DNA from: a virus
DNA: 64,000 bases
Virus record (IMG/VR): IMGVR_UViG_3300025141_012314
Coordinates: 16,342 to 80,341 of that record
Reading direction: 5' to 3' (one strand)
The notes below the pieces were generated by a model. The model worked only from the letters and a program-made list of their open reading frames with translations, was not told where the DNA came from and ran no database searches. The position numbers and the translations under genes are program-made. Positions within the stretch are counted from its first letter, which is position 1; each line of letters starts with the position of its first letter. Below are positions 81 through 22,205 of this stretch, in pieces.

Positions 81-109
81 TTGACGAAAGCATTTGATGT
101 GGTTATAAT
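81..109 (+). promoter_or_regulatory. sigma70-type promoter
   Basis: TTGACG (81-86), 17-nt spacer, TATAAT (104-109), A/T tracts upstream; GGAG SD then GTG start at 131. Confidence 0.8.
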
Positions 110-914: not shown

Positions 915-2198
915 ATGAAGAAAAAGAAAGTTTTGGTGCTCTCCGATCACCCGCTTTCGCCATCTGGGGTTGGAACCCAAACCCGGTATATGATCGAGGC
1001 GCTCCTTAAAACAGGGCGCTATCAATTTGTTTGTTTAGGCGGAGCAGTAAAACACAGAGAATACCAGATGCAAAAGGTTGATCCCTATGGGGAAGACTGG
1101 CGAATATTCCCTGTCGATGGATATGGAAACCCCGAAATCATACGCTCGATACTCCAGAAAGAAAGACCGGATGTATTGTGGTTTATGACAGATCCTCGTT
1201 TTTATACGTGGCTGTGGGAAATCGAGAACGAAGTGAGAATCAACGTCCCAATGGTTTATTATCATGTATGGGATAACAACCCGGCACCGTTCTATAATGC
1301 AAACTACTACAAATCTAATGATAAGGTAGTTTGTATATCAAAGGTTACAAAGGGTATTCTGGATACAGTTGCTCCAGACGTAGACAGCGAGTATCTTCCA
1401 CATGCGGTAGACTCGGAGTCTTTCTATAAGTTCAAAACAGATGAAGATCTTGCAAGAACCGCTGTTATTCGTGAACGCGTCGTTGGAGCCTCAACAGAGT
1501 TCGCCAACCCGGAGAAGAAAATCTTTTTCTGGAATAATAGAAATGCACGTAGAAAACAGTCTGGAACACTTATTTGGTGGTTTAAAGAGTTCTTAGATGA
1601 AGTGGGTCATGACAAAGCTACTCTGCTTATGCATACTGATGCGCGAGATCCTCACGGACAAGACTTGCCTCATATCTTGAACCACCTTAATATAACAGAC
1701 GGACAGGTTTTGCTTTCAACTGATAAGGTTTCTCCACAAGATCTCGCAGCAATGTACAACGCTGCGCATTTTACCATTAATATCTCAGATGCAGAAGGAT
1801 TTGGACTAGGAACGTTAGAGTCTTTAGCATGCGGAACTCCTATTATTGTTAATATGACAGGAGGCTTGCAAGAGCAGGTTACCGATGGAAAGAACTGGTT
1901 TGGCTACGGTTTAGAACCTTCCTCGAAGGCGATTATTGGTTCCCTACAAGTGCCATATATCTACGAGGATCGTATCACCCAGAAAGCTTTCACCAACACC
2001 CTCAAAAAGGCTCTGAACATCGCACCAAAGACTTACAAGAAGATGTCGATACAAGGTAGAGAACATGTTCGTGCAAACTATAACTTTGACGATTATGAGA
2101 AAAACTGGGTTAAGATTATGGATGATGTTGTTGAAACATACGGATCATGGGAAGAGAGAAAACAATATAAACGCTGGCATTTATTGGAGGTAGCGTAA
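915..2198 (+). CDS. GT-B glycosyltransferase (GT4-like)
   Basis: SGVGTQ N-terminal loop, NRNARRKQ, EGFGLGTLESLACGTPII (EX7E). Confidence 0.85.
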   Translation: MKKKKVLVLSDHPLSPSGVGTQTRYMIEALLKTGRYQFVCLGGAVKHREYQMQKVDPYGEDWRIFPVDGYGNPEIIRSILQKERPDVLWFMTDPRFYTWLWEIENEVRINVPMVYYHVWDNNPAPFYNANYYKSNDKVVCISKVTKGILDTVAPDVDSEYLPHAVDSESFYKFKTDEDLARTAVIRERVVGASTEFANPEKKIFFWNNRNARRKQSGTLIWWFKEFLDEVGHDKATLLMHTDARDPHGQDLPHILNHLNITDGQVLLSTDKVSPQDLAAMYNAAHFTINISDAEGFGLGTLESLACGTPIIVNMTGGLQEQVTDGKNWFGYGLEPSSKAIIGSLQVPYIYEDRITQKAFTNTLKKALNIAPKTYKKMSIQGREHVRANYNFDDYEKNWVKIMDDVVETYGSWEERKQYKRWHLLEVA

Positions 2199-3460
2199 TG
2201 AAAAAGAAAGTATTCTTTAGAGGACCCCTTCTAACAAGATCGGGATACGGAGAACAGGCTAGATTCGCAATGCGGGCATTAGCTTCCCGACCAGATCTTT
2301 TCGATATTTATATTCAGCCTTTAGAATGGGGGAAAACCTCGTGGACCAATGAGGATACCCCTGAGAGGGCTTGGATTGATAGAACCATAGAAAAGACCCT
2401 GCAATACATCCAGCAAAACGGACAGTTTGATATATCGTTCCAAGTTACAATTCCAAATGAATGGGACAAGCCAGCACCGATTAATATTGGATACACAGCC
2501 GGGATTGAGACTACGAAAACATCACATCAATGGATCCAAAAGGGCAATGAGATGACTGGTATTATTGTAGTTTCCAACCATGCGAAAAATACTTTTTTAG
2601 CTACGGACTACCAACTGTCCAATCAACAAACAAACCAAACAATGATTCTCAAGTTAGAAACTCCAATTGAGACAGTTAACTACCCAGCAAAGAAGTTCCA
2701 GGAACTTCCAGATGTTGATTTAGACTTAGAATACGAACACAATTTCCTAGTAGCAGCCCAATTGGGCCCTCGCAAAAACGTGCCAAACACTATTAAATGG
2801 TTTGTTGAAGAGTTTCGAGACGAAGAAATAGGGCTTGTTGTAAAGTGTTACGCTGCAAAGAACTGTCTGCTCGACCGCGAGATGACAATGCAAAATCTTA
2901 GACAGCTAGTCTCCCAATTGGGAGAAAAGAAGTGTAAAGTATATCTTCTGCACGGTGACATGTCCGACGAAGAAATGCATTCCCTCCAAACACATCCTAA
3001 GATTTCCGCATTCTTATCCCTAGCTCATGGCGAGGGCTTTGGTTTACCGATTTTTGAAGCAGCCTATTCTGGTACCCCTGTCATTGCAACCGGTTGGTCT
3101 GGTCAGCTGGACTTTCTTGTTGACGAAGAGGGCAAATCAAACTTTTACAACGTAAATTTCGATCTCAACCAAGTACAGCCAGCAGTTGTTTGGGATGGTG
3201 TCTTAATCGCCGACTCAATGTGGGCTTATCCTCGCGAACAGTCTGCAAAGAAGTGTATGCGCGACTGTTATAATGATATTATAAATCAAACAGAAGGAAG
3301 TGTTGCAACATCTGCCGACACCTTTGCTGAGTCCGTGCAGGAGAGATTTTCGCAGGAAAAACAATATAAAGCCATGGTGGACGCCGTTCTCAAGTTCTCT
3401 GGGAGCCCAGAAGAAGAACAATGGAGAGATGTGTTGGACCAAGTGGTAGAGTATGATTAG
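2198..3460 (+). CDS. GT-B glycosyltransferase (GT4-like)
   Basis: SGYGEQAR, PRKN, HGEGFGLPIFEAAYSGTPVIATGWSG (EX7E). Confidence 0.85.
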   Translation: MKKKVFFRGPLLTRSGYGEQARFAMRALASRPDLFDIYIQPLEWGKTSWTNEDTPERAWIDRTIEKTLQYIQQNGQFDISFQVTIPNEWDKPAPINIGYTAGIETTKTSHQWIQKGNEMTGIIVVSNHAKNTFLATDYQLSNQQTNQTMILKLETPIETVNYPAKKFQELPDVDLDLEYEHNFLVAAQLGPRKNVPNTIKWFVEEFRDEEIGLVVKCYAAKNCLLDREMTMQNLRQLVSQLGEKKCKVYLLHGDMSDEEMHSLQTHPKISAFLSLAHGEGFGLPIFEAAYSGTPVIATGWSGQLDFLVDEEGKSNFYNVNFDLNQVQPAVVWDGVLIADSMWAYPREQSAKKCMRDCYNDIINQTEGSVATSADTFAESVQERFSQEKQYKAMVDAVLKFSGSPEEEQWRDVLDQVVEYD

Positions 3461-5120
3461 CAAAGAAGTAATCTTTATATCCGACTTCTTTATCAATGAG
3501 GTAATGGGTGGCGCTGAGTTTTGTAATGATGCTCTGATGAAACTTTTAAGTCCGGATGTAAAGATTGATAGTTTAAAGTCTGACCGTGCAACTGTTCAAC
3601 TTGTTGAGAATAATCTTGATAAGTTCTTCATTGTCGCGAACTTCTTTCAACTTGCTGAGAATGTAAAAGTAGCTTTAGCAAAAACAACATATGTTATTTT
3701 AGAGCACGATCACAAATATGTCCGCTCAAATAATCCTTCCTTATACAAAGATTTTCTTGCGCCAGAAAGACAAATACAAAATAAGGCATTTTATAAGAAT
3801 GCGTTAGCGGTACTGTGCCAGTCTAGGAAGCATGCCGGAGTCGTCCAACGCAACCTCCTAATAAACAATATTGTAAATTTAGGCGGCAACATATGGAATG
3901 AGGAACAACTCGCCACTTTAGAGAATAATATGGGCGCGAAGAAAATAATTAAGTATGGAGTTCTCCAGTCCAATAACCGCAACAAAGGCATGCCCGCAGC
4001 GATCGCATATTGTCAGAGAAAAGGATTAGACTTTAAGCTAATTCAAGGCAAGCCATTTCCTGAGTTTATTAGAGATATCTCCCAAGTGGAAACATTAGTA
4101 TTCTTTCCGCAATGGTTAGAGACATATAATCGTTTTTCTATTGAATCAAGGATCCTGGGCTGTAAACTTATAACAAACAGCCTGATAGGCGCCACCAGCG
4201 AAGACTACTTTAAGCTGAAGGGCAACGAACTTTTAGATTTTATAAGACAAAACAATCAGAATCTTCGTCAGCGCTGGATTAAACTAATCAACAATAGTGA
4301 AATAAAATACTTCCCGCCCTTAGACCTGCCAAAGATTACGGTATTCTGTCCCCTATATGCCGGCGAACAATATATTGAAGGCTTTCTGAAGTCTATGCAA
4401 GAACAGACAATCTTTGATCAGTGCGAACTGATCATTATTGATGCCAACTCTCCCGAAAACGAGAGTCAATACATCGAAGAGTTTATGAAAGAGCATGAAA
4501 ATGTAATTTACAAGCGATTAGATCATAGGGCGTCAGTAATGGAAACTGAAAATATGGCAATCCACATGGCAACGGGTGAGTTCTTTGCTCAAGCATGCGT
4601 TGATGACAGACATCATAGAGAATATCTTGAGATTATGGCAAAACATCTCCACTATCACGAGGATATAGATCTTGTTTATACAGACTGTCTACAGACTACA
4701 AAGCCAAATGAGACCGTAGAGACAAACTCTTCGTCTGGAGCCTATTACGAGCATTCGCGTAATGAGTTTTCTCCGGAGAACATGATCAAGTGTTTGCCGG
4801 GACCAATGCCTATGTGGAAGCTGAGTGTGCACGAAAAATGTGGATATTTTGATGAAGGTTTATCGTATGCTGGAGATTGGGACATTTTTCTAAGAATGGT
4901 AGCGTCAGGTTCTAAATTTAAGAAAATTGATATTCCGTTAGGGTTATATTACTTTAATTCTGAGGGATTATCAACCTCAACAGAAAATCAAATCCCTAGG
5001 GGAAAAGAAGAGGCGGAAGTCTTCTTTAAGCATAAAAACGTATTCGGTGAAGCGAACTACAATAAATATAAAAATTACTTCTCACAATTTATAAGGAATG
5101 AAAATGAGTCAACAACGTAA
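3453..5120 (+). CDS. two-domain glycosyltransferase: GT-B-like N-half fused to GT2 C-half
   Basis: N-half GGAE and ETYNRFSIESRILGC (EX7E-like); C-half ITVFCPLY, ELIIIDANS, CVDD, DWDIFLRM. Confidence 0.75.
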   Translation: MISKEVIFISDFFINEVMGGAEFCNDALMKLLSPDVKIDSLKSDRATVQLVENNLDKFFIVANFFQLAENVKVALAKTTYVILEHDHKYVRSNNPSLYKDFLAPERQIQNKAFYKNALAVLCQSRKHAGVVQRNLLINNIVNLGGNIWNEEQLATLENNMGAKKIIKYGVLQSNNRNKGMPAAIAYCQRKGLDFKLIQGKPFPEFIRDISQVETLVFFPQWLETYNRFSIESRILGCKLITNSLIGATSEDYFKLKGNELLDFIRQNNQNLRQRWIKLINNSEIKYFPPLDLPKITVFCPLYAGEQYIEGFLKSMQEQTIFDQCELIIIDANSPENESQYIEEFMKEHENVIYKRLDHRASVMETENMAIHMATGEFFAQACVDDRHHREYLEIMAKHLHYHEDIDLVYTDCLQTTKPNETVETNSSSGAYYEHSRNEFSPENMIKCLPGPMPMWKLSVHEKCGYFDEGLSYAGDWDIFLRMVASGSKFKKIDIPLGLYYFNSEGLSTSTENQIPRGKEEAEVFFKHKNVFGEANYNKYKNYFSQFIRNENESTT

Positions 5121-5517
5121 ATACCTTCCTACACTCTCCGAATTGATCGATCGCCTGTCGATTGCACAACTCAAAGAAGTGTTTATCCCCGAACACAAAG
5201 CTGAATATGCCCAGGAAATCTCAGATATCTGCCATGATATCCAGTTGATTCTCGATTCTAGTTCCGGCAAAATGAACGCGGAAACTGTAAGAGCGATAAT
5301 TGTCCTCTCTCAGATGAACTTGCACATTTGGCACAATGAGTCTCAAGTTAGAGCCGGCTCAGGTTCTGGCAATCTAGCGCTAACTCACGGACTCAACGGT
5401 CTTCGGAATGTGGCAAAAAACAGGATTCAAGAGATTAACGGCGGCAGAAAAGATTATAAGATTGATTGTTTAGCAGCCGACTTTAAAGATTGGGAAATCA
5501 GCTGGGATAATGACTGA
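5104..5517 (+). CDS. small helical hypothetical protein, resembles DUF4254/DUF6165-type proteins of glycosylation loci
   Basis: SELIDRLSI..LK, NLHIWHNE, NGLRN..K..I pattern; ATG 5104 is better spaced from AGGA than ATG 5098. Confidence 0.5.
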   Translation: MSQQRKYLPTLSELIDRLSIAQLKEVFIPEHKAEYAQEISDICHDIQLILDSSSGKMNAETVRAIIVLSQMNLHIWHNESQVRAGSGSGNLALTHGLNGLRNVAKNRIQEINGGRKDYKIDCLAADFKDWEISWDND

Positions 5518-6601
5518 GGTTTATGACTTTGATGTTGTCATTATTGGAGCCGGACTTGTAGGATTAGCTGTAGCTAGAGAATTATCCTCGGTATATGATA
5601 ATATCATATTAGTTGAAAAAGAGTCAAGTTTCGGACAGCACGTTTCGAGTCATAATAGCGAAGTTATCCACTCCGGCATATATTATCCCAAGGGCGCCCT
5701 TAAAACTAAACTATGTGTTGAGGGCAATAAACTGCTTTATAAATTTGCACAAAAATATGATATACCGCATAAGAAATGTGGAAAATTGATTGTGGCTACC
5801 TGCCCAGAAGAAGAACCTATTCTTGATCAACTTTATGAGCAGGGGAAGAAAAACGCGGTAGTAGGTATGTCAATGATTGGCAAATCAGAGATCGCCAAAA
5901 TAGAGCCAGCCGTTAAAGCAACAAAGGCACTCCACGTAGAATCTACAGGAATAATAGACAGCCATTCAGTTATGCAGCAGCTTGAGGCGTCAGCCTTAAA
6001 TGCGGGGGTGGTCACTCTGTATAATACTGAAATAACATCGATTGATAAAAAAAATAACATTTATAAGTTGACAACTGATACAAATAATGATATTATACAA
6101 ACAAGAATAGTAATTAACGCTGCAGGGCTCTGGAGCGACACTATTGCGGCAATGGTGGGAATAAATGATTATAAGATCCATTGGTGTAAAGGCGAGTATT
6201 ATAAAACCAATAAACACAGGAATATGAAAAAGCTGATTTATCCGGTACCGGATCCTCAAGGCAAGTATTTGGGAATTCATACGGTACTAGATTTAAATGG
6301 CGGACTTCTTTTCGGACCAAATGCATATTATGTAGACAATCTCTCTTATGATATGAAAGAGAATAACAAGCCCCAGTTTTATGAGGCGATTAATCGATAT
6401 TTAGATATCGGTTGGTGCGAGATAGAACCAGCGTTAACTGGCATAAGACCAAAACTTCAAGCTCCCGGCGAGAAATTTAGAGATTTTGTAATAGAAAATA
6501 ACCAAAAACATGAGAATTTTATCAACATAGTAGGAATAGAATCACCGGGCTTGACAGCCTGTCTTGCTATTGCTAAACATACAAGGGGAATTATTAGATG
6601 A
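5510..6601 (+). CDS. FAD-dependent oxidoreductase, L-2-hydroxyglutarate oxidase (LhgO)-like
   Basis: IIGAGLVG, SSHNSEVIHSGIYY, INAAGLWSD, KGEY, GIRPK, GIESPGLTA. Confidence 0.85.
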   Translation: MTEVYDFDVVIIGAGLVGLAVARELSSVYDNIILVEKESSFGQHVSSHNSEVIHSGIYYPKGALKTKLCVEGNKLLYKFAQKYDIPHKKCGKLIVATCPEEEPILDQLYEQGKKNAVVGMSMIGKSEIAKIEPAVKATKALHVESTGIIDSHSVMQQLEASALNAGVVTLYNTEITSIDKKNNIYKLTTDTNNDIIQTRIVINAAGLWSDTIAAMVGINDYKIHWCKGEYYKTNKHRNMKKLIYPVPDPQGKYLGIHTVLDLNGGLLFGPNAYYVDNLSYDMKENNKPQFYEAINRYLDIGWCEIEPALTGIRPKLQAPGEKFRDFVIENNQKHENFINIVGIESPGLTACLAIAKHTRGIIR

Positions 6602-7536
6602 AAAAAGAACACGTATTAGTCACAGGAGGCGCCGGCTATATAGGCTCTGAACTGATCGATTACTTACTCCACGCAGGATATACTGTAACAGCGCTCGATA
6701 ACTTAATGTATGATCCGACGTCGTTGCTGCGCTATACCAACAATCCAGATTTTAGCTTCATCAAGGGGGACGTTAGAAACGTTCTATTGATGGAACGCCT
6801 TATGGCAGAAGCAGACATTATTATACCTTTGGCGGCATTGGTTGGCTTTCCTTTGTGCGATGAGGACCCCCGTGCTGCCCAAGAGATTAACCATGACGTT
6901 AATACTTGGATAGCAAAAAACAAAAAGCCAAATCAAAAGGTTATCTACCCCTGCACTAACTCTGGCTACGGCGTTAGTGTCGATGGTTCTGTCTGTACAG
7001 AAGAATCACCCCTTAATCCTATTTCGCTTTACGGGCGAACTAAAGTGGCTGCAGAGAAGGAATATCAGGATGTTGATAACTGCGTAACATTTAGACTGGC
7101 TACTGTTTTTGGCCCGGGCTCACGCATGCGCTCTGACCTCCTTGTAAACAACTTTGTTCTTAAGACATTGCGCGAGAGAGTTTTGGTGTTGTATGAATGT
7201 GAGTTCATGCGCAACTATGTGCATCTTCATGATGTATGTCGCGGCTTTATGTTTGTGCTCCGTAACTGGGAAGATTGTAAAAATGAAACATATAATCTTG
7301 GAAATGACGAACTGAATATGAACAAGCTCCAGCTAGCCGAAAAGATTCAAGAGCATCTTCCTCTAGAGATAATCCGCGCAGAGATTAACAGCGATCCTGA
7401 TACCCGCGACTACATTGTTAGTAGCGATAAGATTTATAATAAAGGCTACAAGTGCGCATATGATCTCGATGATGGAATCAGACAACTCATAACTGCATAT
7501 GCTATTATAGAAAGCCCTTGGTACGCAAACTATTAA
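6598..7536 (+). CDS. NAD-dependent sugar epimerase/dehydratase (extended SDR)
   Basis: TGGAGYIG, YGRTK (YxxxK), FRLATVFG. Confidence 0.85.
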   Translation: MKKEHVLVTGGAGYIGSELIDYLLHAGYTVTALDNLMYDPTSLLRYTNNPDFSFIKGDVRNVLLMERLMAEADIIIPLAALVGFPLCDEDPRAAQEINHDVNTWIAKNKKPNQKVIYPCTNSGYGVSVDGSVCTEESPLNPISLYGRTKVAAEKEYQDVDNCVTFRLATVFGPGSRMRSDLLVNNFVLKTLRERVLVLYECEFMRNYVHLHDVCRGFMFVLRNWEDCKNETYNLGNDELNMNKLQLAEKIQEHLPLEIIRAEINSDPDTRDYIVSSDKIYNKGYKCAYDLDDGIRQLITAYAIIESPWYANY

Positions 7537-7537
7537 T

Positions 7538-9046
7538 ATGAAACAGATAGATGTATTATTCGTCCATCCCAATGGCGCCCAGATAATTTATCAAGAGCTG
7601 AGTAAAAACTATTCAGCGATTGAACCGCCTATATGGGCAGCCCTGCTGGCAAAAAATGCCCTCACAAAAGGATTTACTACAAACATTCTTGATTGTGAAG
7701 CAGAAAGAATAGACGCATCAGAATCAGCAACCCGGGTAAAAGAGCAGAATCCTCGTTTGGTGGCGATAGTGGTATATGGTCAACAGCCTTCAGCATCAAC
7801 TCAGAATATGATTGGCGCACGAATGTTGATAGAACAACTGAACGCAATCGCTCCAGAACTTAAGACGATCCTCATCGGATTACACCCCTCAGCCGTCGCT
7901 CGACACACGCTGGAAACCGAAGGCTCTGATTTTGTTTGCCAAGGTGAAGGTCCTTACACTGTTCAAAAGCTCTTAGAAATCGATATGGACGATGCTGGCG
8001 CTCTAAGCACCGTCCCTGGGCTTTGGTACCGAGTTGATGGTAAGGCCCTTTGCACACGCCCTGCGCCGATTATACCGCAAGAGAAGCTCTCTACGGAGCT
8101 ACCCGGGATGGCATGGGACTTGCTTCCGATGGATAAGTACCGCACATCTAACTGGCATGCAATGACAAATGGAGACGACCGTCAGCCGTTCGCTTCTTTG
8201 TATACAAGCTTAGGTTGTCCGTTCCGCTGTAGTTTTTGTTGTATTAACGCGCCATTCGGCAACAATAACTTGGAAAATTGGGACTACGGACGTAATAAGT
8301 TTAGATATTGGGAACCAGAATTTATGATTGAAGAGTTTGAAACTCTCCATAAAATGGGAATCCGGAATATTAAACTAGCTGATGAAATGTTTGTCTTAAA
8401 TCAAGACCATTTCATGAAGCTATGCAACTTGATTATTGAGAGAGGTTATGACTTTAACTTTTGGGCGTACGCTCGTGTAGATACAGTTAAAGAAGAATAT
8501 CTTGAAACATTAAAGAAAGCCGGCGTTAACTGGCTAGCCTTGGGAATCGAATCGGGAAACACTGAAGTTCGAAAGGATGTAACAAAGGGTAAGTTCACAG
8601 ATGTAAAGATTCAGGATTTAGTAAAGAAGATCCAAGACGCTGGCATCGACGTCATCGGTAACTATATCTTTGGGCTCCCCGAGGATACTATCGAGACCAT
8701 GCAAGATACACTGGACATGGCAATGGAACTCAACTGTGAGTTTGCAAACTTCTATTCAACCATGGCTTACCCCGGCTCGAAGTTATATCTCGATGCATTG
8801 AGAGAAGGCTGGGAGCTTCCAGAAACATATGTGGGATTCTCACAACATTCATACGAGACGCACCCGCTGTCAACTAAACATATATCAGCAGCCGAAGTGT
8901 TAGGCTTCAGAGACGAAGCGTTTACAAAATACTACACCAGCGATAGATATTTGGACATGATTGAGGAAAAGCGAGGAAAAGCCACGCGCCAGTCTATTGA
9001 AGATATGACAAAAATAAAACTTAAAAGAAAACTATTGGGAGATTGA
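7538..9046 (+). CDS. cobalamin-binding radical SAM protein
   Basis: N-terminal B12-binding-like domain (PPIWAALLA, GLHPSA, GEG), CPFRCSFC (CxxxCxxC), GIESGN, YIFGLP, YPGSKLY. Confidence 0.9.
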   Translation: MKQIDVLFVHPNGAQIIYQELSKNYSAIEPPIWAALLAKNALTKGFTTNILDCEAERIDASESATRVKEQNPRLVAIVVYGQQPSASTQNMIGARMLIEQLNAIAPELKTILIGLHPSAVARHTLETEGSDFVCQGEGPYTVQKLLEIDMDDAGALSTVPGLWYRVDGKALCTRPAPIIPQEKLSTELPGMAWDLLPMDKYRTSNWHAMTNGDDRQPFASLYTSLGCPFRCSFCCINAPFGNNNLENWDYGRNKFRYWEPEFMIEEFETLHKMGIRNIKLADEMFVLNQDHFMKLCNLIIERGYDFNFWAYARVDTVKEEYLETLKKAGVNWLALGIESGNTEVRKDVTKGKFTDVKIQDLVKKIQDAGIDVIGNYIFGLPEDTIETMQDTLDMAMELNCEFANFYSTMAYPGSKLYLDALREGWELPETYVGFSQHSYETHPLSTKHISAAEVLGFRDEAFTKYYTSDRYLDMIEEKRGKATRQSIEDMTKIKLKRKLLGD

Positions 9047-9047
9047 T

Positions 9048-9659
9048 ATGTTAACGAAAGAAGATTTGATTGATTTTGAGAACGACATTGCAGCCTGTTT
9101 TGATGACGCACAAATCCGCGCACCCGTTCACTTATATAACGGTAATGAAGAGCAAATGTTGGAGATATTTCGAAAGCATGATATTGGCGATGATGATTGG
9201 GTCTTCGGATCTTGGCGAAGCCATTATCAGTGTCTTCTCAAAGGTGTTCCTCCCGAAAAGCTCAAAGCAGCTATTCTTAAGGGGCGCTCTATTTCATTGT
9301 GCTTTGCTGAGCAAAAGGTTCTATGCTCGGGGATCGTAACTGGTGTTCTTCCGATTGCAGTAGGGGCAGCGCTAGACATTAAAAGGAGAAACCTCCCGGG
9401 AAAAGTATATTGTTTTATGGGAGATATGACATCCGAGACTGCGATCGCGCATGTAAGTATAAAATATGCCAGAAATCACAAACTCCCTATTCACTTTATC
9501 GTTGAAGATAATGGCAAATCAGTTTGTACTGATACTAAATCCACGTGGGGAACTGAGAAGTTAACCTATGAAGATGTCAACGACGAGTACATAACATATT
9601 ATAGCTACGACGCAAGTAAGTGGCCACACGCTGGAGCCGGCAAGAGAGTGCAGTTTTGA
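9048..9659 (+). CDS. TPP-dependent enzyme, E1-alpha-like subunit (short)
   Basis: APVHLYNGNEE, WRSHY, SGIV, TPP motif variant GDM-x~26-EDN. Confidence 0.8.
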   Translation: MLTKEDLIDFENDIAACFDDAQIRAPVHLYNGNEEQMLEIFRKHDIGDDDWVFGSWRSHYQCLLKGVPPEKLKAAILKGRSISLCFAEQKVLCSGIVTGVLPIAVGAALDIKRRNLPGKVYCFMGDMTSETAIAHVSIKYARNHKLPIHFIVEDNGKSVCTDTKSTWGTEKLTYEDVNDEYITYYSYDASKWPHAGAGKRVQF

Positions 9660-13359: not shown

Positions 13360-14258
13360 TTTCAAATAAATATGGATTTATATTTGTTCACACTCCCAAA
13401 ACGGGAGGAACTAGTATTGTTGACACTTTAAATAAAGACACAGATCAAGAGTGTAAAATATTATATGATGCGGAAGGTGGCATATCCGCCATTTACCCCT
13501 CCCCAGAGGATTTCCCTTGGTGGGGCTCTTGGATCCAACACGCAGTGCAACGCCACACCGCGATGCTAAAAGGGCTCCAACAACAACGTATCGAAACGAA
13601 CACACCAGATCTGGCATTTGATATTCCCCAAACCGGCGCCGATGCTATTTTCTCCACCTGTTCGTTAAACTCCGTTGGTAACGGCAACCTTAAGCACGTG
13701 CCATTGCGAATTTGGAGCGCGCTCATAAGGGACTCCCGCATACAATTTTATAATTCTTTTGCAAAGAAATATTCTTCAATTGGGACATGCAGAAACCCCT
13801 ATAAAAGAGAGTTTTCATATTTTTTGTATCAAATAAAGTCCGGACTGCAAAAAGAGATAGAAAAAGCTCATTTTAAGGATCACAACGAAGTTAGCGAATA
13901 TATTAGAAATGCATGGCAAAGGTGGTTTCTCGGAGAAAGCCTTCCAACTATTTTAGGGGAGTCTTCATTTTTACATTGGGATTCTCAAATATCTTATTTA
14001 TATGATCCCTTTACTAACCAAAGGGTTACACATTTAATTAGGTCAGAACATTTAGAGCAAGATTACAACAAAATCTGTCGTGAACTTTCAATACCTCGAA
14101 AAAATGAAATTCCCTGGCTTAATACATCACCCTTTAAACAAGAATATACACCCAAAAACATATTAGAATGGTATACTGATGAAATGATGGACTTAATACA
14201 CTCTCATCGGAAGGGCGATTTTGATTTCTTGGGATATAAAAAAGGTAGCTTACGATGA
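13356..14258 (+). CDS. sulfotransferase family 2 protein
   Basis: FIFVHTPKTGGTSI, CRNPYKREFS, IRSEHLEQD, DFDFLGY. Confidence 0.8.
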   Translation: MISNKYGFIFVHTPKTGGTSIVDTLNKDTDQECKILYDAEGGISAIYPSPEDFPWWGSWIQHAVQRHTAMLKGLQQQRIETNTPDLAFDIPQTGADAIFSTCSLNSVGNGNLKHVPLRIWSALIRDSRIQFYNSFAKKYSSIGTCRNPYKREFSYFLYQIKSGLQKEIEKAHFKDHNEVSEYIRNAWQRWFLGESLPTILGESSFLHWDSQISYLYDPFTNQRVTHLIRSEHLEQDYNKICRELSIPRKNEIPWLNTSPFKQEYTPKNILEWYTDEMMDLIHSHRKGDFDFLGYKKGSLR

Positions 14259-15265: not shown

Positions 15266-16047
15266 GACCAGAGTTATCAATAATACTCCCCAGCATCCGC
15301 CCGGATCGCTTAGAGAAACTGTACGATTCAATACTCACATCGACAGAACGCACATTCGAGCTAATCATAGTTGGTCCATATCCACTACCAGAGAAACTCT
15401 CCGAACTTAAGAATGTAAAATACGTTAAGGATTTTGGATCTCCCGTCCGAGCCTCGAACATTGCAGCTTCTTTGTGCGAGGGAGAAGTCTATACATGGTT
15501 TGCTGACGACTGCATTCTATTTGAAAACAGCTTAGACAAGTGCCTAGACGAATATCGCGCCATGGGAACTGACAACAAAAATGTCCTTGTGGCGAAGTAT
15601 TATGAAGGACAAGAAGGTTCTACAGAGCGAGAGACGCTCCAGCCCGATAGCTACTTTAGAGTTAACGGCACACCTGCAGGTTCGCCACATCTTCCAGACG
15701 ATTGGTGGCTTTTTAATATCGCCTTTCTTTCAGCCGAGTTCTTCCATACTCTAGGAGGCTGGGACTGCTCTTACGAGGGAACATGGGCATCACATGCAGA
15801 TATGGCTATCCGAGCCCAATACCTTGGTGCCAATGTAAAAATGGCACAGATTCCCCTCTTTACTTGCGATCATATGCCCGGAGGAACCGGGGATCACAAG
15901 CCGATATTCGAGTGCCAGCATCAACATGATGAACCACTACTACAACGTAAGTTCAGAGATCCAAATTGGACTACAAACGTAAACCCAAGACTAAAAATAG
16001 ATAATTGGAAAACAGCCCCAGCAGTCTGGGGAAGGAGATTTAAATGA
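15262..16047 (+). CDS. GT2-like glycosyltransferase, paralog B
   Basis: SIILPSIR, FADD, LGGWDCSYE, DMAIRAQ, DNWK...VWGRRF. Confidence 0.7.
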   Translation: MRPELSIILPSIRPDRLEKLYDSILTSTERTFELIIVGPYPLPEKLSELKNVKYVKDFGSPVRASNIAASLCEGEVYTWFADDCILFENSLDKCLDEYRAMGTDNKNVLVAKYYEGQEGSTERETLQPDSYFRVNGTPAGSPHLPDDWWLFNIAFLSAEFFHTLGGWDCSYEGTWASHADMAIRAQYLGANVKMAQIPLFTCDHMPGGTGDHKPIFECQHQHDEPLLQRKFRDPNWTTNVNPRLKIDNWKTAPAVWGRRFK

Positions 16048-16646
16048 GCGATAAGAAAATAGGAACGAACACTAATATGGCTGATCCCATAAAACAGACA
16101 CAAGGGGTCAAACTTAATTTAGGTTGTTCTAGCCGTAAATTTCACGGCTGGATTAATATTGACGCAAGACAAGAAGTTTTTCCAGATGTTATAGATAATG
16201 TTTTTACTCTGGAAAGTATCGAAGATTCGTCTGTAGACTTAATTTATGCTTCTCATTTACTTGAGCATATCAAAAGGAAGGAAGTCAAAAGTGTTTTATC
16301 ACGATGGAAAGCGCTTCTTCGGACAAATGGTGTTTTAAGATTATCTGTACCTGACTTTGAAAAAGTAATAAAATATTATTTACTCACTGCAGACTTAGAA
16401 AAATTACACGGACTTTTGCATGGAGGACAAAGAAATGAATATGATATTCATTACATTACTTTTGATTTTAAGTTATTAAAAAGACTTCTGGTAGAAGTAG
16501 GATTTGCAGAAGAAGACATTCGAATCTATTCTTATAAGGAAACAGAACATTTCTTTATTGATGATGGTAGTCAAGCTCACTTGCCACATATGGATAAGGT
16601 CAATGGGATGCTAATGAGTTTAAATGTGGAGGCGATCAAAAGATGA
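16044..16646 (+). CDS. class I SAM-dependent methyltransferase (Methyltransf_11-like)
   Basis: KLNLGC, GWINID, SVDLIYASHLLEH, LRTNGVLRLSVPD. Confidence 0.8.
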   Translation: MSDKKIGTNTNMADPIKQTQGVKLNLGCSSRKFHGWINIDARQEVFPDVIDNVFTLESIEDSSVDLIYASHLLEHIKRKEVKSVLSRWKALLRTNGVLRLSVPDFEKVIKYYLLTADLEKLHGLLHGGQRNEYDIHYITFDFKLLKRLLVEVGFAEEDIRIYSYKETEHFFIDDGSQAHLPHMDKVNGMLMSLNVEAIKR

Positions 16647-17485
16647 TCAATCAAAGTACATGTGACTTATCAATTATTGTCCCGGGAATTCAACCGGAAA
16701 ATTGGGAATCTCTTTATGAGAGAACCAAATTAGCAGTTAAAAACCATACATTTGAAATTATTTTCTGTGGGCCCCGCGGCTTGCCTTCTTATTTTGATGA
16801 TATTATAAATGTAAAATTTATAAGAGATTATGGAACCCCATCTAGGTGTTTTCAATTAGCGGGGTATATTGCTGAGGGGACCTATTTAACATGGCTAACT
16901 GATGATGGGGAAATTGAAGAAGACTCAATTGATTTAGCGCTCGATCTCATAAAAGAAAAAGAATCTATTGATATTGTTACTATGAGATATACAGAAAGCG
17001 ACACTGAAGAAGGCCGCCAAACAGAATTTCCTCTAGAATATTATAATGTTTCATATCATCCCGATACAAACCACCCGGGTGTCGAGTCACACTGGAAGAT
17101 TCCGTGTGTTATGTTGCTTAATACAAACTATTATAGGCAACTTGGTGGTTTAGATTGTAGATACGAACACATGAATATGAATGTTCATGATCTTGGTTTC
17201 CGTGCACAACGCAACGGTTCTGTGGTCTATTATTCACCAACAGTTATAATGAGATGTGTGTGGGATCCTCATAGAAACGCACAAAATAGCCCTATTATTG
17301 CTGCTTTCGTCTACAACGATAAACCGCTTTTTCAATATGATTATGCGGCACCACAGGTCGCGAAGTTAAAACCAATATGTATCGATTATGACAATTGGAG
17401 AAACAACCATTCAGTTTGGCCAAGACGTTTTGGAACTATAGATAAAGGACAATATTTACTTAATAAAGATAAGGTGAAAAAATGA
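16643..17485 (+). CDS. GT2-like glycosyltransferase, paralog C
   Basis: SIIVPGI, LTDD, LGGLDCRYE, HDLGFRAQ, DNWR...VWPRRF. Confidence 0.7.
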   Translation: MINQSTCDLSIIVPGIQPENWESLYERTKLAVKNHTFEIIFCGPRGLPSYFDDIINVKFIRDYGTPSRCFQLAGYIAEGTYLTWLTDDGEIEEDSIDLALDLIKEKESIDIVTMRYTESDTEEGRQTEFPLEYYNVSYHPDTNHPGVESHWKIPCVMLLNTNYYRQLGGLDCRYEHMNMNVHDLGFRAQRNGSVVYYSPTVIMRCVWDPHRNAQNSPIIAAFVYNDKPLFQYDYAAPQVAKLKPICIDYDNWRNNHSVWPRRFGTIDKGQYLLNKDKVKK

Positions 17486-18417
17486 AAATTTTAGTTACGG
17501 GAGCAAATGGTTTAATTGGCTATGCTATTCGCGAAATAGCTGTCAAATACTCCCAACACGAATTTTTCTTTAGTACTAGAGAAGATACTAATTTGATAAA
17601 GCCCGATGAGGTCGCGCGATTATTCGACCGTGTTAACCCAGATTGGGTTATACACGCTGCCGGACAGGTAGGGGGTATCGGCGGTAATCTATCCCATCAA
17701 GAGGATTATTTCTATAATAATATTTTAATGAACTCTAATGTTATTCACTATGCGTGCCTCTCAGATGTAAAGAAATTGATAGCGTTTTCTTCTACTTGTG
17801 TTTTTTCACGAGAACAAGAGACATTTGTAGAAGACGATATACAAAAAGGAGAGCCTTTTCATATTCACTTTGCTTATGCTTACGCTAAAAGAATGGTGGA
17901 CATTCATATTAAGGCAGCTAAAAGACAACACGACGTCGATTTTTGCTCAGTAATACCGGGAAATATATTTGGTAAACATGATAATTTTAATTTAGAGGAA
18001 GGTCACGTGACTCCTTCATTAATTTATAAGTGCCAATTGGCAAAAAAAGACGATGACCCGTTTAAAATATGGGGAAATGGTAATGCAAAAAGAGAGTTGA
18101 TATATTCTTTAGATATAGCTGAGATTTTAATACGCATATTAGAGATGGAACAGTTGCTGCCAAATAGATTATTAGTGGGGAGTGACGATGAACTTTCTAT
18201 TAAAGAATTAGCAGAAAAAATAGCGGACCTTTCTGGGTTTGATGGCGAGATAATGTTCGATAAAAACAAGCCCGATGGACAATTGAGAAAGAAATCTAAC
18301 ATATCTAGACTTAGAACACTCCTTCCAGATTTCAAATTTACAAACTTAGATGTTTCTTTAAAAGAAACAATTGAATGGTTTACTCAAAATTATCCCAATA
18401 TTCGTGGTATAAAATAA
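17482..18417 (+). CDS. fcl: GDP-L-fucose synthase / ColC-like epimerase-reductase
   Basis: TGANGLIG, AAGQVGGIGGN, SSTCVF, YAYAKR, PGNIFGKHDNF, GHV, WGNGNAKRE, KPDGQ. Confidence 0.85.
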   Translation: MKILVTGANGLIGYAIREIAVKYSQHEFFFSTREDTNLIKPDEVARLFDRVNPDWVIHAAGQVGGIGGNLSHQEDYFYNNILMNSNVIHYACLSDVKKLIAFSSTCVFSREQETFVEDDIQKGEPFHIHFAYAYAKRMVDIHIKAAKRQHDVDFCSVIPGNIFGKHDNFNLEEGHVTPSLIYKCQLAKKDDDPFKIWGNGNAKRELIYSLDIAEILIRILEMEQLLPNRLLVGSDDELSIKELAEKIADLSGFDGEIMFDKNKPDGQLRKKSNISRLRTLLPDFKFTNLDVSLKETIEWFTQNYPNIRGIK

Positions 18418-18947
18418 TGTATTATGTTGATAATATAAAATATAGCTCAGAGATTGAAGGAGCGGTGATAATTTCTCTGGACACATTTGATGATGTAAGG
18501 GGAAAGATTTGGACGCTATATGGCGAAAACAGCTTTCTTCCGGAATTTGTAGAAGATAAAATAACTATTTCTTATAAAAATGTTTTAAGGGGGCTCCACG
18601 GAGACGCGCGCACCGGGAAGCTTATTACATGTATTGGGGGAAGCTTTCAATTAGCGATCGCAGACATGAGGCCCGAATCGCCTACCTACACAAATACTTA
18701 TATGATTACATTAAGCGATGAAAATCCCACATCCGTTTATATACCCCCGGGCTGCATAAACGGACATCTATGTTTAAGCGATAGATGTACGTTTCATTAT
18801 AAATGGACACGACCTTATGAAGGTCCCCAAGACCAAGTAACCATATTGTGGAACGATCCGGATTTAGCTTTCGAGTGGTCAATCCATAATCCCATTTTAT
18901 CTGAAAGAGATCAAAATGGAACATCATTTAAAAGGAGTTGTATATGA
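18417..18947 (+). CDS. rmlC: dTDP-4-dehydrorhamnose 3,5-epimerase-like cupin
   Basis: FDDVRG, NVLRGLH, DMRPESPTY, YIPPGCINGH, WNDPDL, ILSERD; ATG 18417 overlaps the upstream TAA. Confidence 0.85.
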   Translation: MYYVDNIKYSSEIEGAVIISLDTFDDVRGKIWTLYGENSFLPEFVEDKITISYKNVLRGLHGDARTGKLITCIGGSFQLAIADMRPESPTYTNTYMITLSDENPTSVYIPPGCINGHLCLSDRCTFHYKWTRPYEGPQDQVTILWNDPDLAFEWSIHNPILSERDQNGTSFKRSCI

Positions 18948-20146
18948 AATATCAAAACTATAAAAAATCCAGACAAGAGACAATTAAATATCCCTTAGCA
19001 AAAGAAACTATTAACGACGAAGATGTCAATGCATTATGCGACTGGCTCAAGAGCTATCCGCGCCTGACAAAGGGTGCGTTGACTTGGCAAGTCGAAGAAG
19101 ACTGGGCAAAGTACATCGGAACCAGATACTCAGTTTTTAATAACTCAGGATCCTCAGCAAACCTCTTAATGGTCGCTGCTGCAGTCCAAGCCGGACGCAT
19201 CCCAAACAAGAAGATCGCAGTACCATCCGTAGGTTGGGTTACCACTATCTCTCCAGCAATGCAGCTTGGACTAGAACCAATCATGGTCGGCTCTGACCCA
19301 GAAACATACGGCATGGATTTAGACCAGCTGGAGGCAGTTTGCGAACGCGACCGACCTGACGCTGTTATCTTTGTCCAAGTATTGGGCGTACCGCACTACA
19401 AAGAGCGTCTGCTGGCGTTAAAGGAGAAATACGGGTTCATACTCCTTGAAGATGCTTGCGCGGCTCTAGGAGCCTCCTACGCCGACGGAAGCATGGTTGG
19501 GACAGTCGGAGACATGTCTTCATTCTCGTTCTACTTTGGGCACCAGTTGTCAACTATCGAGGGCGGAATGGTTAACGTAAACGACCCAGAACTATATGAA
19601 ATGCTACTAATGCTTCGCTCTCACGGCTGGGCTAAGGATTTGCCGAAAGATTCATATGACGAACTGATGTCTGAGCACGGCGTTGATGATTTTCATAGCC
19701 CGTTTACATTTTTTATCCCGGGATACAACCTAAGATCGACAGACCTGCAGGCATTCTTGGGCATTCGCCAGATTAAAAAGGCTGACTGGGCTGCAAAAAG
19801 GCGATATGAGAACCACTGTTTATATGCTGAAAAGCTCGAAGGATATGTAGAGTTTCAGAAGTGGGGAGACAATACTCCTGTGTCGATTTCATTTGGAGCC
19901 TTGGCTAGCAGCACCGAACATCGCCGAGAAATAGTCGAAAGACTTGTCGCAAACGGCGTCGAAACTAGGATATATAGCGCTGGTAATCTTGGCCGGCATC
20001 CTTTCTGGACAGCCAAATACGAAGAGTTTGTTGATGAGCACAGCGATAAGATTCACTCTCAAGGCTTTTTCATCCCAAACTATCCCGAGTTGACAGCAGA
20101 CGAGATTGACTTTATCTGCAACGTAGTCAAAGGCGAAGTCGAATGA
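18944..20146 (+). CDS. colD: PLP-dependent GDP-4-keto-6-deoxymannose 3-dehydratase (ColD-like; DegT fold)
   Basis: YPLA N-terminus, SGSSANLLM, SFYFGHQLSTIEGG with His in place of the PLP Lys, RSHGW, PGYNLR; lacks the RfbH Fe-S cysteines. Confidence 0.75.
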   Translation: MKYQNYKKSRQETIKYPLAKETINDEDVNALCDWLKSYPRLTKGALTWQVEEDWAKYIGTRYSVFNNSGSSANLLMVAAAVQAGRIPNKKIAVPSVGWVTTISPAMQLGLEPIMVGSDPETYGMDLDQLEAVCERDRPDAVIFVQVLGVPHYKERLLALKEKYGFILLEDACAALGASYADGSMVGTVGDMSSFSFYFGHQLSTIEGGMVNVNDPELYEMLLMLRSHGWAKDLPKDSYDELMSEHGVDDFHSPFTFFIPGYNLRSTDLQAFLGIRQIKKADWAAKRRYENHCLYAEKLEGYVEFQKWGDNTPVSISFGALASSTEHRREIVERLVANGVETRIYSAGNLGRHPFWTAKYEEFVDEHSDKIHSQGFFIPNYPELTADEIDFICNVVKGEVE

Positions 20147-20880
20147 GGATTCTCGTAATAGGAGAAAGTTGCAAAGATGTTTATCAGTACGGCGATTGTG
20201 TCAGGCTCTGTCCTGAAGCGCCCGTGCCGGTCTTCCAAAGTAATCGACACCAAACGATTAATGGTGGAATGGCGATGAACGTTTACAACAATGTGTCCTC
20301 TTTATGCGAGTACCCTGTTGATCTGATTACGAACGAGAATTGGACAGAGATCTTAAAAACAAGACTAGTCGATTTCCGTACAAATTATATAGTTTTGCGT
20401 GTAGATCAAAATGACGCCGATTATGAAAAGAGTGATATAACAAAGATCGAGTTTGAAAAATATGACGCAGTTATAATCTCGGACTATAATAAAGGATATT
20501 TGTCCGAGGATGACATTGAATATATTGCAACGCAGCATCCAATAACATTTCTTGATACAAAAAAGATTTTAGGAAACTGGTGTCGCAATATTATGTTTAT
20601 TAAGATAAATGAATTTGAATATGAGCGCACTCGACATCGTTTGGAAGAGGATATGATTGATAAGATGATTATTACTCTTGGTCCAAACGGCGCCAAATAT
20701 AAAGACGAGCTTTATAAGGTGCCCAAAGTAGAGATAAAAGATACTTCTGGTGCCGGCGATACATTTATTTCCGGGCTTGTTGTAAAATATGTAGAAACTG
20801 GTGAGATTGACACCGCGATTAAATATGCGAATGAGTGTGCTACTGCTGTTGTGCAAAAAAAGGGCGTAACCATAGTATAA
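20143..20880 (+). CDS. PfkB-family sugar kinase, HldE/RfaE kinase domain (HldA-like)
   Basis: RLCPEAPVPV, GGMAMNV, IISDYNKG, DTSGAGDTF. Confidence 0.85.
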   Translation: MRILVIGESCKDVYQYGDCVRLCPEAPVPVFQSNRHQTINGGMAMNVYNNVSSLCEYPVDLITNENWTEILKTRLVDFRTNYIVLRVDQNDADYEKSDITKIEFEKYDAVIISDYNKGYLSEDDIEYIATQHPITFLDTKKILGNWCRNIMFIKINEFEYERTRHRLEEDMIDKMIITLGPNGAKYKDELYKVPKVEIKDTSGAGDTFISGLVVKYVETGEIDTAIKYANECATAVVQKKGVTIV

Positions 20881-21278
20881 TGCAAAACAAAACCACCATA
20901 TGGACGAACGGCTGTTTTGACGTGCTCCACCGCGGACACTTTGAGATGCTTAAGTATGCGAAGTCTTTAGGAGACTATTTAATTGTGGGCATAGACACTG
21001 ATGAGAAAGTTAAGAAGGATAAGGGACAGAACAGACCTTACAACCATCAGAATGATCGAAAGTTTGCGCTTGAATCAATAAGATATGTTGACGAGGTAAT
21101 ACTTTTTAATTCATCAAATGAATTAAAAAACTTGATAAAAGTGTTGAAACCGGATATAATGGTTATAGGTTCTGATTGGAAAGGAAAAACAGTTGTGGGA
21201 CAAGAGTTTTCAACTGTAAAGTTTTTTGATAGGATTGGTGATTATTCAACCACAAACATTTTGGAGAACAAGGGATGA
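20880..21278 (+). CDS. nucleotidyltransferase, HldE/RfaE domain II (HldC-like)
   Basis: TNGCFDVLHRGH, LIVGIDTD, KGQNRP, PDIMVIGSDW, YSTT; ATG 20880 overlaps the upstream TAA. Confidence 0.85.
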   Translation: MQNKTTIWTNGCFDVLHRGHFEMLKYAKSLGDYLIVGIDTDEKVKKDKGQNRPYNHQNDRKFALESIRYVDEVILFNSSNELKNLIKVLKPDIMVIGSDWKGKTVVGQEFSTVKFFDRIGDYSTTNILENKG

Positions 21279-21616
21279 CATATGTATTTGATATCGATGG
21301 AACAATTTGTACGAAAGCAGCTGACTATGACTACGAGAGTTCAGAACCAATACAAGAAAGGATAGATTATATTAATAGATTATTCGACTCTGGGCACGTT
21401 ATAATTTTTCAAACAGCCAGAGGTATGGGAAGAAGTAGAAACTCTGCTGCGTACGCCAACGCAGCATTTTATATTATGACCCAAGAACAGCTTAAGAGTT
21501 GGGGTGTGAGATATCACGATTTATTTTTAGGCAAACCCGCCGGCGATATTTATATCGACGATAAAGGTGTTAGAGATACGGATTTTTTTGATAATTTAGG
21601 AGCAGAGGCTAAATGA
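21275..21616 (+). CDS. small HAD-family phosphatase (capsule-biosynthesis type)
   Basis: VFDIDGTIC, TARG, GKP, YIDDK. Confidence 0.8.
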   Translation: MTYVFDIDGTICTKAADYDYESSEPIQERIDYINRLFDSGHVIIFQTARGMGRSRNSAAYANAAFYIMTQEQLKSWGVRYHDLFLGKPAGDIYIDDKGVRDTDFFDNLGAEAK

Positions 21617-21981
21617 GTAAACCCACACATGAATTATCAATGTTCCACGTCGATAAAGGCTGGGGCTGGGAACGTTGGATCGTAAACACCGAAGAATATT
21701 GCGGCAAACTATTGTTTTTCAACAAGTCCAAGCGCTGTTCATGGCACTACCACAAGCTAAAAGATGAGGTTTTTTATCTACAGTCCGGAAAAATGATGAT
21801 TTATTTTTCTGACAGCGATGAACTTGAAAACGCCAGCCAACTCATCTTAAACCCCGGCGATAACTTTCATGTTTATCGAGGGCTGCGCCACCAAATGGTA
21901 GCGCTGGAGGACTCGGAGCTATTCGAGTTTTCAACACAACATTTTGACTCTGATTCCTACAGAGTAATCAAAGGAGATTAA
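21613..21981 (+). CDS. cupin, sugar-isomerase-like
   Basis: KGWGWERW, SWHYHKLKDEVFY, GLRH, EFST. Confidence 0.75.
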   Translation: MSKPTHELSMFHVDKGWGWERWIVNTEEYCGKLLFFNKSKRCSWHYHKLKDEVFYLQSGKMMIYFSDSDELENASQLILNPGDNFHVYRGLRHQMVALEDSELFEFSTQHFDSDSYRVIKGD

Positions 21982-21986
21982 TTATT

Positions 21987-22205
21987 ATGGAAACCAAAAA
22001 ACTGCAGCTATCTAACCAAGCCCTAGGGGCTATCATGATGGCATTACAAGAATCGCTTCTCAATGAGTTAGATATTGTGCCTATCCTCCGCGGATTTGAA
22101 TTAACAGATACCAATGAAGGACTTGTTGTTGAAAATCCACCAACCGTTCGCGTAACGAACAATGAGGCGATCACTAACGAAACTCTTGAAGGGCTTGTTA
22201 AATAA
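21987..22205 (+). CDS. hypothetical protein
   Basis: GGAG SD, 72-aa ORF coupled to the next gene. Confidence 0.6.
   Translation: METKKLQLSNQALGAIMMALQESLLNELDIVPILRGFELTDTNEGLVVENPPTVRVTNNEAITNETLEGLVK

Follow-up and report, generated by a model that had tools for sequence, protein, structure and literature searches.

A 25-gene glycan island anchored by a conserved glycosyltransferase pair in an uncultured marine phage related to T4

Bacterial loci for Wzx/Wzy- or ABC-dependent synthesis of O-antigen or capsule combine clustered nucleoside diphosphate (NDP)-sugar genes and several glycosyltransferases (GTs) with an initiating phosphoglycosyl transferase and a flippase/polymerase. Chloroviruses glycosylate their own capsid by means of cytosolic enzymes (PMC9614988), and the sugar gene clusters of marine phages have been filed under 'host lipopolysaccharide (LPS) modification' for twenty years without a test. 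Here we describe a glycan island at positions 915-21981 of a 64,000-nucleotide window, which corresponds to bases 16342-80341 of the 80,341-bp IMG/VR viral contig IMGVR_UViG_3300025141_012314 (estimated to be 44% complete). The island shares the clustered NDP-sugar genes and the multiple GTs of the bacterial loci, but neither an initiating phosphoglycosyl transferase nor a flippase/polymerase was found in this contig or in the relatives searched. Our preferred explanation, held at slightly less than an even chance, is that an acceptor intrinsic to the phage, probably its virion proteins, is glycosylated in the cytoplasm.

The contig (G000) belongs to a very abundant lineage of uncultured ocean phages related to T4. 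Its closest cultured kin, judged by the protein of the gp6-like baseplate wedge gene at 32950, are Microcystis phage Mel-JY01 (31%) and Flavobacterium phage immuto (28%). Comparisons were made with the complete genomes of three cultured relatives (immuto, Mel-JY01 and Rhodothermus phage RM378), with three related uncultured contigs (G001, G002 and G004), with 18 further uncultured marine relatives, five of which are 91-100% complete, and with sister-clade contigs collected using a single representative (P0126) of GT4a, the first GT of the island. Pfam/NCBIfam, PHROGs and PDB sequences were the sources for gene family assignment. A megablast search of the island against 50,697 phage records gave no match, and three Far-T4 papers (PMC4360716, PMC7198788, PMC13037479) make no mention of it.

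The island comprises 25 plus-strand open reading frames (ORFs), and each junction between them is either an overlap or a gap of at most 1 nt, which agrees with the ~25 coupled genes of a first-pass annotation made from the sequence alone. Family searches also bore out the seven GT genes (~8 GT domains) listed there, and each of its sulfotransferase, methyltransferase, radical SAM and thiamine pyrophosphate (TPP) enzymes was assigned in the same way. The pathways read from these genes are those for a heptose and a ColD/ColC-type 3,6-dideoxyhexose, together with a uronic-acid-type dehydrogenase.

What is new here is a nuclease-GT4a-GT4b synteny that extends to cultured phages across three host phyla, more weakly in RM378, with the content downstream of it swapped; also new are the affinity of both GT4 enzymes to chlorovirus B736L, the use of published immuto DNA chemistry as evidence against DNA glycosylation, GT4a inteins, a conserved early promoter and the finding that near-complete relatives lack genes for export and base hydroxylation. 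The anchor on the 5' side is a PD-(D/E)XK nuclease gene (131..904, plus strand; Pfam PF12705, E 4.5e-17), which has an orthologue immediately before the GT4 pair in both immuto and Mel-JY01. It is followed by GT4a (915..2198, plus strand), a retaining GT-B enzyme of B736L type that was identified by Pfam, an AlphaFold2 (AF2) model, a match to structure 3OY2 and orthologues in all three cultured relatives, and by GT4b (2198..3460, plus strand), a distant paralogue identified by Pfam, hhalign and its model, with orthologues in immuto and Mel-JY01 and a weak counterpart in RM378. The order of the three genes is the same in immuto and Mel-JY01, where they are followed by non-orthologous GT, methyltransferase and sugar genes; immuto thus has the orthologous core plus a sugar island of its own with five further GT genes. 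RM378 encodes GT4a and then the weak GT4b match with nothing further, has no sugar-synthesis genes, and its gene upstream of GT4a shows no match to the nuclease. A tblastn search with GT4a retrieved only 10 phage records, namely those of immuto (four), Mel-JY01, RM378, an uncultured 484-kb phage and two actinophages. The hosts of the phages with the GT4 pair therefore span Bacteroidota (immuto), Cyanobacteria (Mel-JY01) and Rhodothermus (RM378), which are three phyla.

The same division into a conserved head and a variable body is seen among the marine contigs. The sister clade keeps the nuclease (44-66%), GT4a (53-61%), GT4b (39-51%) and usually the 555-aa protein encoded next in the island, which is 33-44% identical in most sister-clade contigs, and has no other island genes in common within 10 kb downstream. 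Within the window's own clade, the swapped cassettes are the FAD oxidase, the ORF at 9620, the sulfotransferase and a methyltransferase/GT2/Fcl/RmlC block. Amino acid conservation of the island genes among contigs (62-86%) is similar to that of the gp6-like gene (60-68%), which argues for vertical inheritance rather than recent capture. The first-pass annotation had named a chimera or a bacterial locus among the findings that would undo it; the contig is viral, no fewer than 13 other viral contigs show the island in synteny, and its genes are conserved like the baseplate gene. At 90% identity GT4a alone forms more than 7600 clusters, and at 50% identity 232 clusters have an E-value below 1e-30.

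An hhalign probability of 97.9 marks GT4a and GT4b as ancient paralogues; their models have a pLDDT of 95 and 90, respectively. For both, the best solved structure is B736L of chlorovirus NY-2A (3OY2), which GT4a matches with a fold E of 1.9e-21 and a profile E of 1.5e-29, against 4.5e-18 for the next match, and which GT4b matches with a fold E of 2.2e-14 and as its sole PDB sequence match. Both models have a GT-B fold with an E-x7-E region (invariant E294/G295/G297 in GT4a and E279/G280/G282/E287 in GT4b), and the alpha-GT and beta-GT of T4 are not among the top 50 fold matches of either. Judged by these models, the pair is placed in a viral GT4 subgroup, and the fold does not name the acceptor. 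B736L itself is a GT4 enzyme that binds GDP-mannose (PMC9614988). The 'GT4-conflict' label offered by Pfam was set aside as uninformative, as it stems from a bacterial immunity paper and scores more weakly than generic GT1 matches.

About 15 representative GT4a homologues carry an intein near residue 298, adjoining the invariant E294-G295-G297 (e.g. P0122, P0141, P0145 and P0162), either in a full-size form with a LAGLIDADG endonuclease (800-900 aa) or in a mini form (~580 aa). Placement of an intein beside an invariant motif is typical of strongly constrained core genes, and inteins are, to our knowledge, unusual in a GT. A reading of the 800-900-aa relatives as GT4a-GT4b fusions was rejected, since these proteins are intein-containing GT4a. 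Separately, the sister clade includes fusions of GT4b to a C-terminal part of ~250 aa, giving proteins of 650-685 aa in all (L094:11245-13290, L108:11251-13221, L120:11230-13284 and L141:11232-13190).

The lack of an initiating phospho-GT, Wzx, Wzy or any multi-pass protein, which had been noted at first pass together with a proposal to predict transmembrane (TM) segments over the locus, was confirmed by a hydropathy scan and by family searches. The scan flagged no TM segments in the island apart from Rossmann beta1 strands, and neither the window's contig nor any of three relatives (contigs of 94-113 kb) contains an ORF with at least four TM segments. Bac_transf, Glycos_transf_4 and Polysacc_synt (Wzx) had no match in G000, G001, immuto, Mel-JY01 or RM378, while positive controls gave matches; Wzy_C was absent from the same five genomes, the only ones searched for it, and Bac_transf and Wzx were also absent from the 18 further relatives, including the five that are at least 91% complete. 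No flippase, exporter, polymerase or ligase was thus found via Polysacc_synt, Wzy_C and the TM scans, ABC2_membrane not having been searched as a family. The check for base hydroxymethylases proposed in the first-pass annotation gave no ThyA-type match in Mel-JY01, RM378 or the 18 marine relatives, and PF00303 matched only in immuto among the genomes searched. Tet_JBP (PF12851) was not found anywhere it was searched, a weaker negative in that its controls were silent too; the search for base-hydroxylating enzymes covered these two families.

The three cultured relatives share a membrane protein of ~300-380 aa with four to five hydrophobic segments, similar N-termini and no Pfam family (L049:6506-7651 in immuto, L069:16200-17333 in Mel-JY01 and 39213-40106 in RM378). 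In immuto it is encoded four genes upstream of the nuclease-GT head. Among the four marine contigs that were scanned, no ORF with at least four TM segments was seen, homology to this protein not having been searched.

A sigma-70-type promoter (TTGACG-17-TATAAT, 11 of 12 matches; 81..109, plus strand) heads the nuclease and the glycan operon, inside a 33-nt gap before 131. Its counterpart CTTGACA-N16/17-tGGTTATAaT is kept at the same place in G001, G002 and G004, whose nuclease is only ~70% identical, and the same promoter was seen in five of 15 sister-clade contigs. A different motif, CTATTTAT, is a candidate phage-specific (possibly late) promoter. It precedes structural genes and PhoH, often immediately, shows a strand bias in four contigs (plus:minus 13:0 in this contig, then 12:0, 9:3 and 5:0) and, in three of these contigs, does not occur within the island. 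In this contig it occurs at window positions 23372, 24701, 26074, 32543, 36082, 37277, 56354 and 56460, and further at contig positions 1371, 2199, 2714, 3148 and 14014. Because a sigma-70-type promoter heads the operon and CTATTTAT is absent, the island looks early or middle rather than late, and the operon accordingly appears, from its upstream sequence, to be early-expressed.

This does not support the late-gene linkage suggested at first pass, when the island was described as directly joined to a late sigma factor and to baseplate genes. The late sigma factor finds no support, as no ORF in 22205-26131 matches a sigma family in Pfam, PHROGs or PDB sequences, and ~11 kb comprising small ORFs, a lysozyme-like protein and a 2131-aa protein lies between the island and the baseplate genes.

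Several lines of evidence favour a phage-intrinsic acceptor. The soluble enzyme set is complete, and neither an initiating phosphoglycosyl transferase nor Wzx was found in any genome searched for them; both GT4 proteins are closest to B736L of the capsid-glycosylating chloroviruses; and GT4a belongs to the core genes of a lineage that is very abundant and is a recurrent intein target. Hosts as different as those of the three phyla share few envelope acceptors, so an acceptor supplied by the phage fits better. Outside the phage clade, the nearest GT4 is that of Pontimonas phage phiPsal1, where it lies in a cassette of major capsid protein, GT1, methyltransferase, GT2 and neck genes. Of the earlier idea that a complex glycan is built in the cytoplasm on a phage substrate, the pathway of soluble enzymes, with no export genes in the phages examined, stands, and the modified base as its substrate is not supported.

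We infer the acceptor, the order of steps and the identities of the sugars in the following scheme. Phage enzymes would draw on the nucleotide-sugar pools of the host to make NDP-heptose, a 3,6-dideoxyhexose resembling colitose, a sugar of the uronic-acid type and one that is C-branched or C-methylated. GT4a and GT4b would then start the glycan on an acceptor supplied by the phage, most likely virion proteins at the surface of the tail fibre, baseplate or capsid, and five further GTs, the sulfotransferase and the methyltransferase would extend and decorate it. With the 5' core inherited vertically and the distal cassettes exchanged among related phages, the outer decorations would be strain-specific.

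A lead on possible acceptor proteins came from the tripeptide [ST][GA]S, which occurs 43 times in a 3758-aa tail-side protein (36361-47637) against 9.7 expected (z 11). It is 3-6-fold enriched in this and three further tail-side proteins of 541 aa (34746-36371), 379 aa (57540-58679) and 448 aa (58683-60029), and the same enrichment is seen in the orthologues of three diverged contigs (four contigs in all), where the retention of [ST][GA]S sites is roughly double that of control tripeptides. The enrichment extends to fibre-like proteins of immuto, Mel-JY01 and RM378 and is not seen in 20 structural proteins of T4 (14 observed versus 22.7 expected). The tripeptide could be a sequon or a structural feature, and we treat it as a lead, not as evidence. 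Protein glycosyltransferases of the Maf/MptE type were considered as well and yielded only two sub-threshold matches, in one of the 18 relatives.

A number of observations weigh against glycosylation of virion proteins. The enriched 379- and 448-aa proteins form one homologous, clade-restricted fibre-like family, so that the enrichment is confounded by shared ancestry, and in the fibre of immuto [ST][GA]S clearly belongs to a structural repeat. Affinity to B736L does not point to an acceptor, as none has been assigned to that enzyme (PMC9614988). The argument from three host phyla is suggestive rather than decisive because GT4 enzymes that act on undecaprenyl pyrophosphate (Und-PP)-linked substrates are TM-free too and Und-PP-GlcNAc-like acceptors are widespread. 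An enzyme repertoire of RfaE, ColD/ColC, RmlC and a phosphatase of capsule type is what LPS and capsule pathways typically have. The operon is an early-type transcription unit located between replication-side genes and the baseplate module, whereas the GT genes of mycobacteriophages lie inside the capsid/tail operon. Lastly, virion glycosylation in this clade is a prediction from gene content.

The alternative that survives best is remodelling of the host envelope in trans, a strong rival that we regard as somewhat less probable. Here the soluble phage GTs would extend an Und-PP-linked intermediate of the host, and the host's initiating transferase, flippase or ABC transporter and ligase would then display an altered O-antigen or capsule; the possible benefit is that superinfecting phages are excluded or that fewer progeny are lost on cell debris. 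As the GTs of O-antigen loci are normally TM-free, a phage could borrow the initiating transferase and the flippase of its host. The early sigma-70-type promoter, the LPS- and capsule-type sugar pathways and a cassette exchange that resembles serotype diversification all suit this explanation, which is also how the analogous 22-gene clusters in cyanophages P-SSM2, S-SCSM1 and S-SCSM2R are usually interpreted, albeit without a test (PMC12801897). It sits less well with a GT4 pair that is kept in phages whose hosts belong to three phyla and have envelope glycans unrelated to one another, and with the absence of any initiating, flipping or polymerising gene from every clade phage searched despite the free turnover of island content. 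Moreover, the host's Wzx, Wzy and WaaL would need to accept a foreign sulfated and methylated glycan.

Another cytoplasmic or membrane acceptor is unlikely. Glycolipids (mono- or di-glycosyl diacylglycerol, in the manner of phosphate-sparing lipid remodelling) might be what the GT4 pair makes, or a host protein or small molecule might be what it glycosylates, with the remaining island genes elaborating the product. The fold neighbours of GT4a and GT4b are mostly enzymes with small-molecule or lipid acceptors (MshA, BshA, PimB' and sucrose-phosphate synthase), a UDP-sugar dehydrogenase-like gene lies in the island with PhoH and metallophosphatase genes upstream, and RM378 has the GT pair without sugar-synthesis genes. 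Seven GTs together with heptose, dideoxyhexose, sulfo and methyl tailoring nevertheless go far beyond the needs of glycolipid synthesis, the island has no acyltransferase or lipid gene, and no particular resemblance to Agt or MGS-type enzymes was seen or sought.

DNA hyperglycosylation, in which the GTs would decorate a hydroxylated base of phage DNA to block host nucleases, is very improbable: although heptose and di-heptose are attached to 5-hydroxymethylcytosine (5hmC) by phage gene clusters that combine a HAD/kinase, a cytidylyltransferase and a GT-B enzyme (preprint 10.1101/2023.12.21.572611), which is why we keep the option at all, and although the island adjoins the nuclease and replication-side genes and looks early-expressed, the virion DNA of immuto consists of dA, dC, dT and fdPreQ1 (replacing dG) with no glycosylated nucleoside by liquid chromatography-UV-tandem mass spectrometry (PMC10516641), ThyA homologues are missing from Mel-JY01, RM378 and the marine relatives, the T4 enzymes are outside the top 50 fold matches, and seven GTs would be unprecedented for base modification.

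Returning to glycosylation of the virion, a broader proposal can be made, which we offer as speculative and on balance doubtful. The Far-T4 lineage as a whole, among the most abundant aquatic phage groups, may sugar-coat its own virions by means of an ancient B736L-like GT4 pair shared with chloroviruses, and its marine branch may have expanded this system into a hypervariable 20-kb 'serotype' island that specifies a strain-specific, sulfated and methylated heptose/dideoxyhexose coat. If this were true, the coat might engage or evade the glycan-binding surface proteins of polysaccharide-feeding Flavobacteriales, or might evade grazers or host defences, and the diversity of virion glycans would be a major factor, so far unrecognised, in the specificity of ocean phages for their hosts.

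The body of the island, all on the plus strand, begins with the 555-aa two-domain transferase (3453..5120), which has a GT2 domain at residues 297-411 and a GT1-like N-domain that resembles ~280-aa viral GT1-like proteins. It is followed by a 139-aa protein (5098..5517) of a virus-only family that is present in all close relatives; this has a weak DUF7783 match, and a protein atlas search with it returned viral hypothetical proteins only. The FAD-dependent oxidoreductase (5510..6601; PF01266, E 9e-62) is a variable cassette found only in the closest contigs and L008. Downstream of it are a short-chain dehydrogenase/reductase (SDR) family NDP-sugar epimerase/dehydratase (6598..7536) and a B12-binding radical SAM enzyme (7538..9046), both assigned by family search. 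The radical SAM protein is 68-98% identical in 15 IMG/VR contigs and probably carries out C-methylation or rearrangement of a sugar. A split TPP enzyme (9048..10796; E1alpha-like 9048-9659 and E1beta-like 10257-10796) is interrupted by a 214-aa ORF (9620-10264) that has a weak Sulfotransfer_1 match, which makes it a second sulfotransferase candidate, and that is present in only two relatives.

A Glyco_trans_1_2 transferase (10771-11754) precedes the first of three GT-A-like paralogues at 11738, 15262 and 16643, recognised by sub-threshold GT2 matches and by paralogy; the first (11738-12574) is paralogous to that at 16643 (L005 match at 5786), and the second (15262-16047) is a GT2-like transferase. 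Between these two lie a 261-aa NDP-sugar dehydrogenase-like protein, a sulfotransferase and a further SDR epimerase/dehydratase (14255-15265). The dehydrogenase-like protein (12574..13359) spans positions 67-301 of a 413-position family model and lacks the C-terminal domain, but its 76-84% conservation in relatives indicates a shortened and maintained form rather than a pseudogene. The sulfotransferase, a Sulfotransfer_2 protein (13356..14258; PF03567), belongs to a variable cassette and is 37-40% identical or absent in relatives. The swapped block that follows (16044..18947) encodes a methyltransferase, the GT2-like protein at 16643, a Fcl/ColC-like reductase (the third SDR gene, at 17482) and an RmlC-like epimerase, with 85-92% identity to L006 and 37-49% to other relatives. 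The next protein (18938..20146) is a ColD-type, pyridoxamine phosphate-dependent 3-dehydratase of the DegT fold, whose best PDB sequence match is ColD (2GMS, E 8e-56) in a full-length alignment that also pairs the active-site His. This protein and the Fcl-like gene together point to a colitose-type 3,6-dideoxyhexose. The four last genes (20143..21981) resemble a module for NDP-heptose; family searches assign them to an RfaE-I-like kinase, an RfaE-II-like adenylyltransferase, a HAD phosphatase of capsule type and a cupin.

On the 3' side, a 72-aa ORF read from the sequence (21988..22206, plus strand) fills the apparent gap at 21981-22205, and the operon therefore continues without an intergenic break into a Zn-ribbon gene at 22205. 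Further on, before the baseplate genes, come a small protein with a single TM segment at its N-terminus (22461-22811) and a 450-aa protein whose C-terminus matches endolysin-type PHROGs (23831-25183), which could form a lysis or tail-lysozyme module.

The island can be compared with several known systems. With the phage DNA glycosylation systems (T4 alpha/beta-GT and the 5hmC-glycan clusters of Pyle et al.), it shares early expression, soluble GT-B enzymes and, in one of the clusters, a heptose-activating module, but a base hydroxymethylase or oxygenase was not found in Mel-JY01, RM378 or the marine relatives, and immuto has no glycosylated nucleoside. The 'LPS' or cell-wall clusters of the cyanophages named above are likewise found in large marine T4-type phages, with ~20 clustered GT and NDP-sugar genes that vary among relatives and a function that, there as here, is read from gene content (PMC12801897). 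Their genes are not orthologous to those of the island: the sole match to P-SSM2 and P-SSM5, at 29% identity, is that of the GT2 domain in the 555-aa protein, and a tblastn search with GT4a found no cyanomyovirus match. S-SCSM2R reportedly encodes the export protein PgaA, and none was found in the window's clade. The island differs further in that a B736L-like GT4 pair anchors it at a fixed site behind a nuclease gene, with an early promoter and a hypervariable body. Were the host surface the target, this would be the first case in which the conserved and variable parts of such a system have been mapped.

The actinobacteriophage virion-glycosylation cassettes (Freeman et al. 2023, as cited in PMC12619734) share GT1/GT4, GT2 and methyltransferase genes and the lack of export genes, and a similar cassette is found in phiPsal1. 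They consist of two to four genes inside a late capsid/tail operon, in contrast to the 25 genes, complete sugar pathways and early-type operon seen here. As the core is shared with three cultured phages, the question of the acceptor can be tested in the laboratory, and, if the virion is the target, glycan coats would have been overlooked as something that determines the host range, stability and recognition of ocean phages. Autonomous glycosylation in giant viruses (chlorovirus Vp54 and the fibril glycans of mimivirus) shares soluble GTs, NDP-sugar enzymes and methyltransferases, as well as a conserved core with variable decoration. It differs in that the system described here is that of a bacteriophage, for which glycosylated virion proteins are a prediction. 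GT4a and GT4b are specifically closest to chlorovirus B736L/A546L, and glycan coats on the virion, if that is the target, would form a deep link between phage and giant-virus glycosylation.

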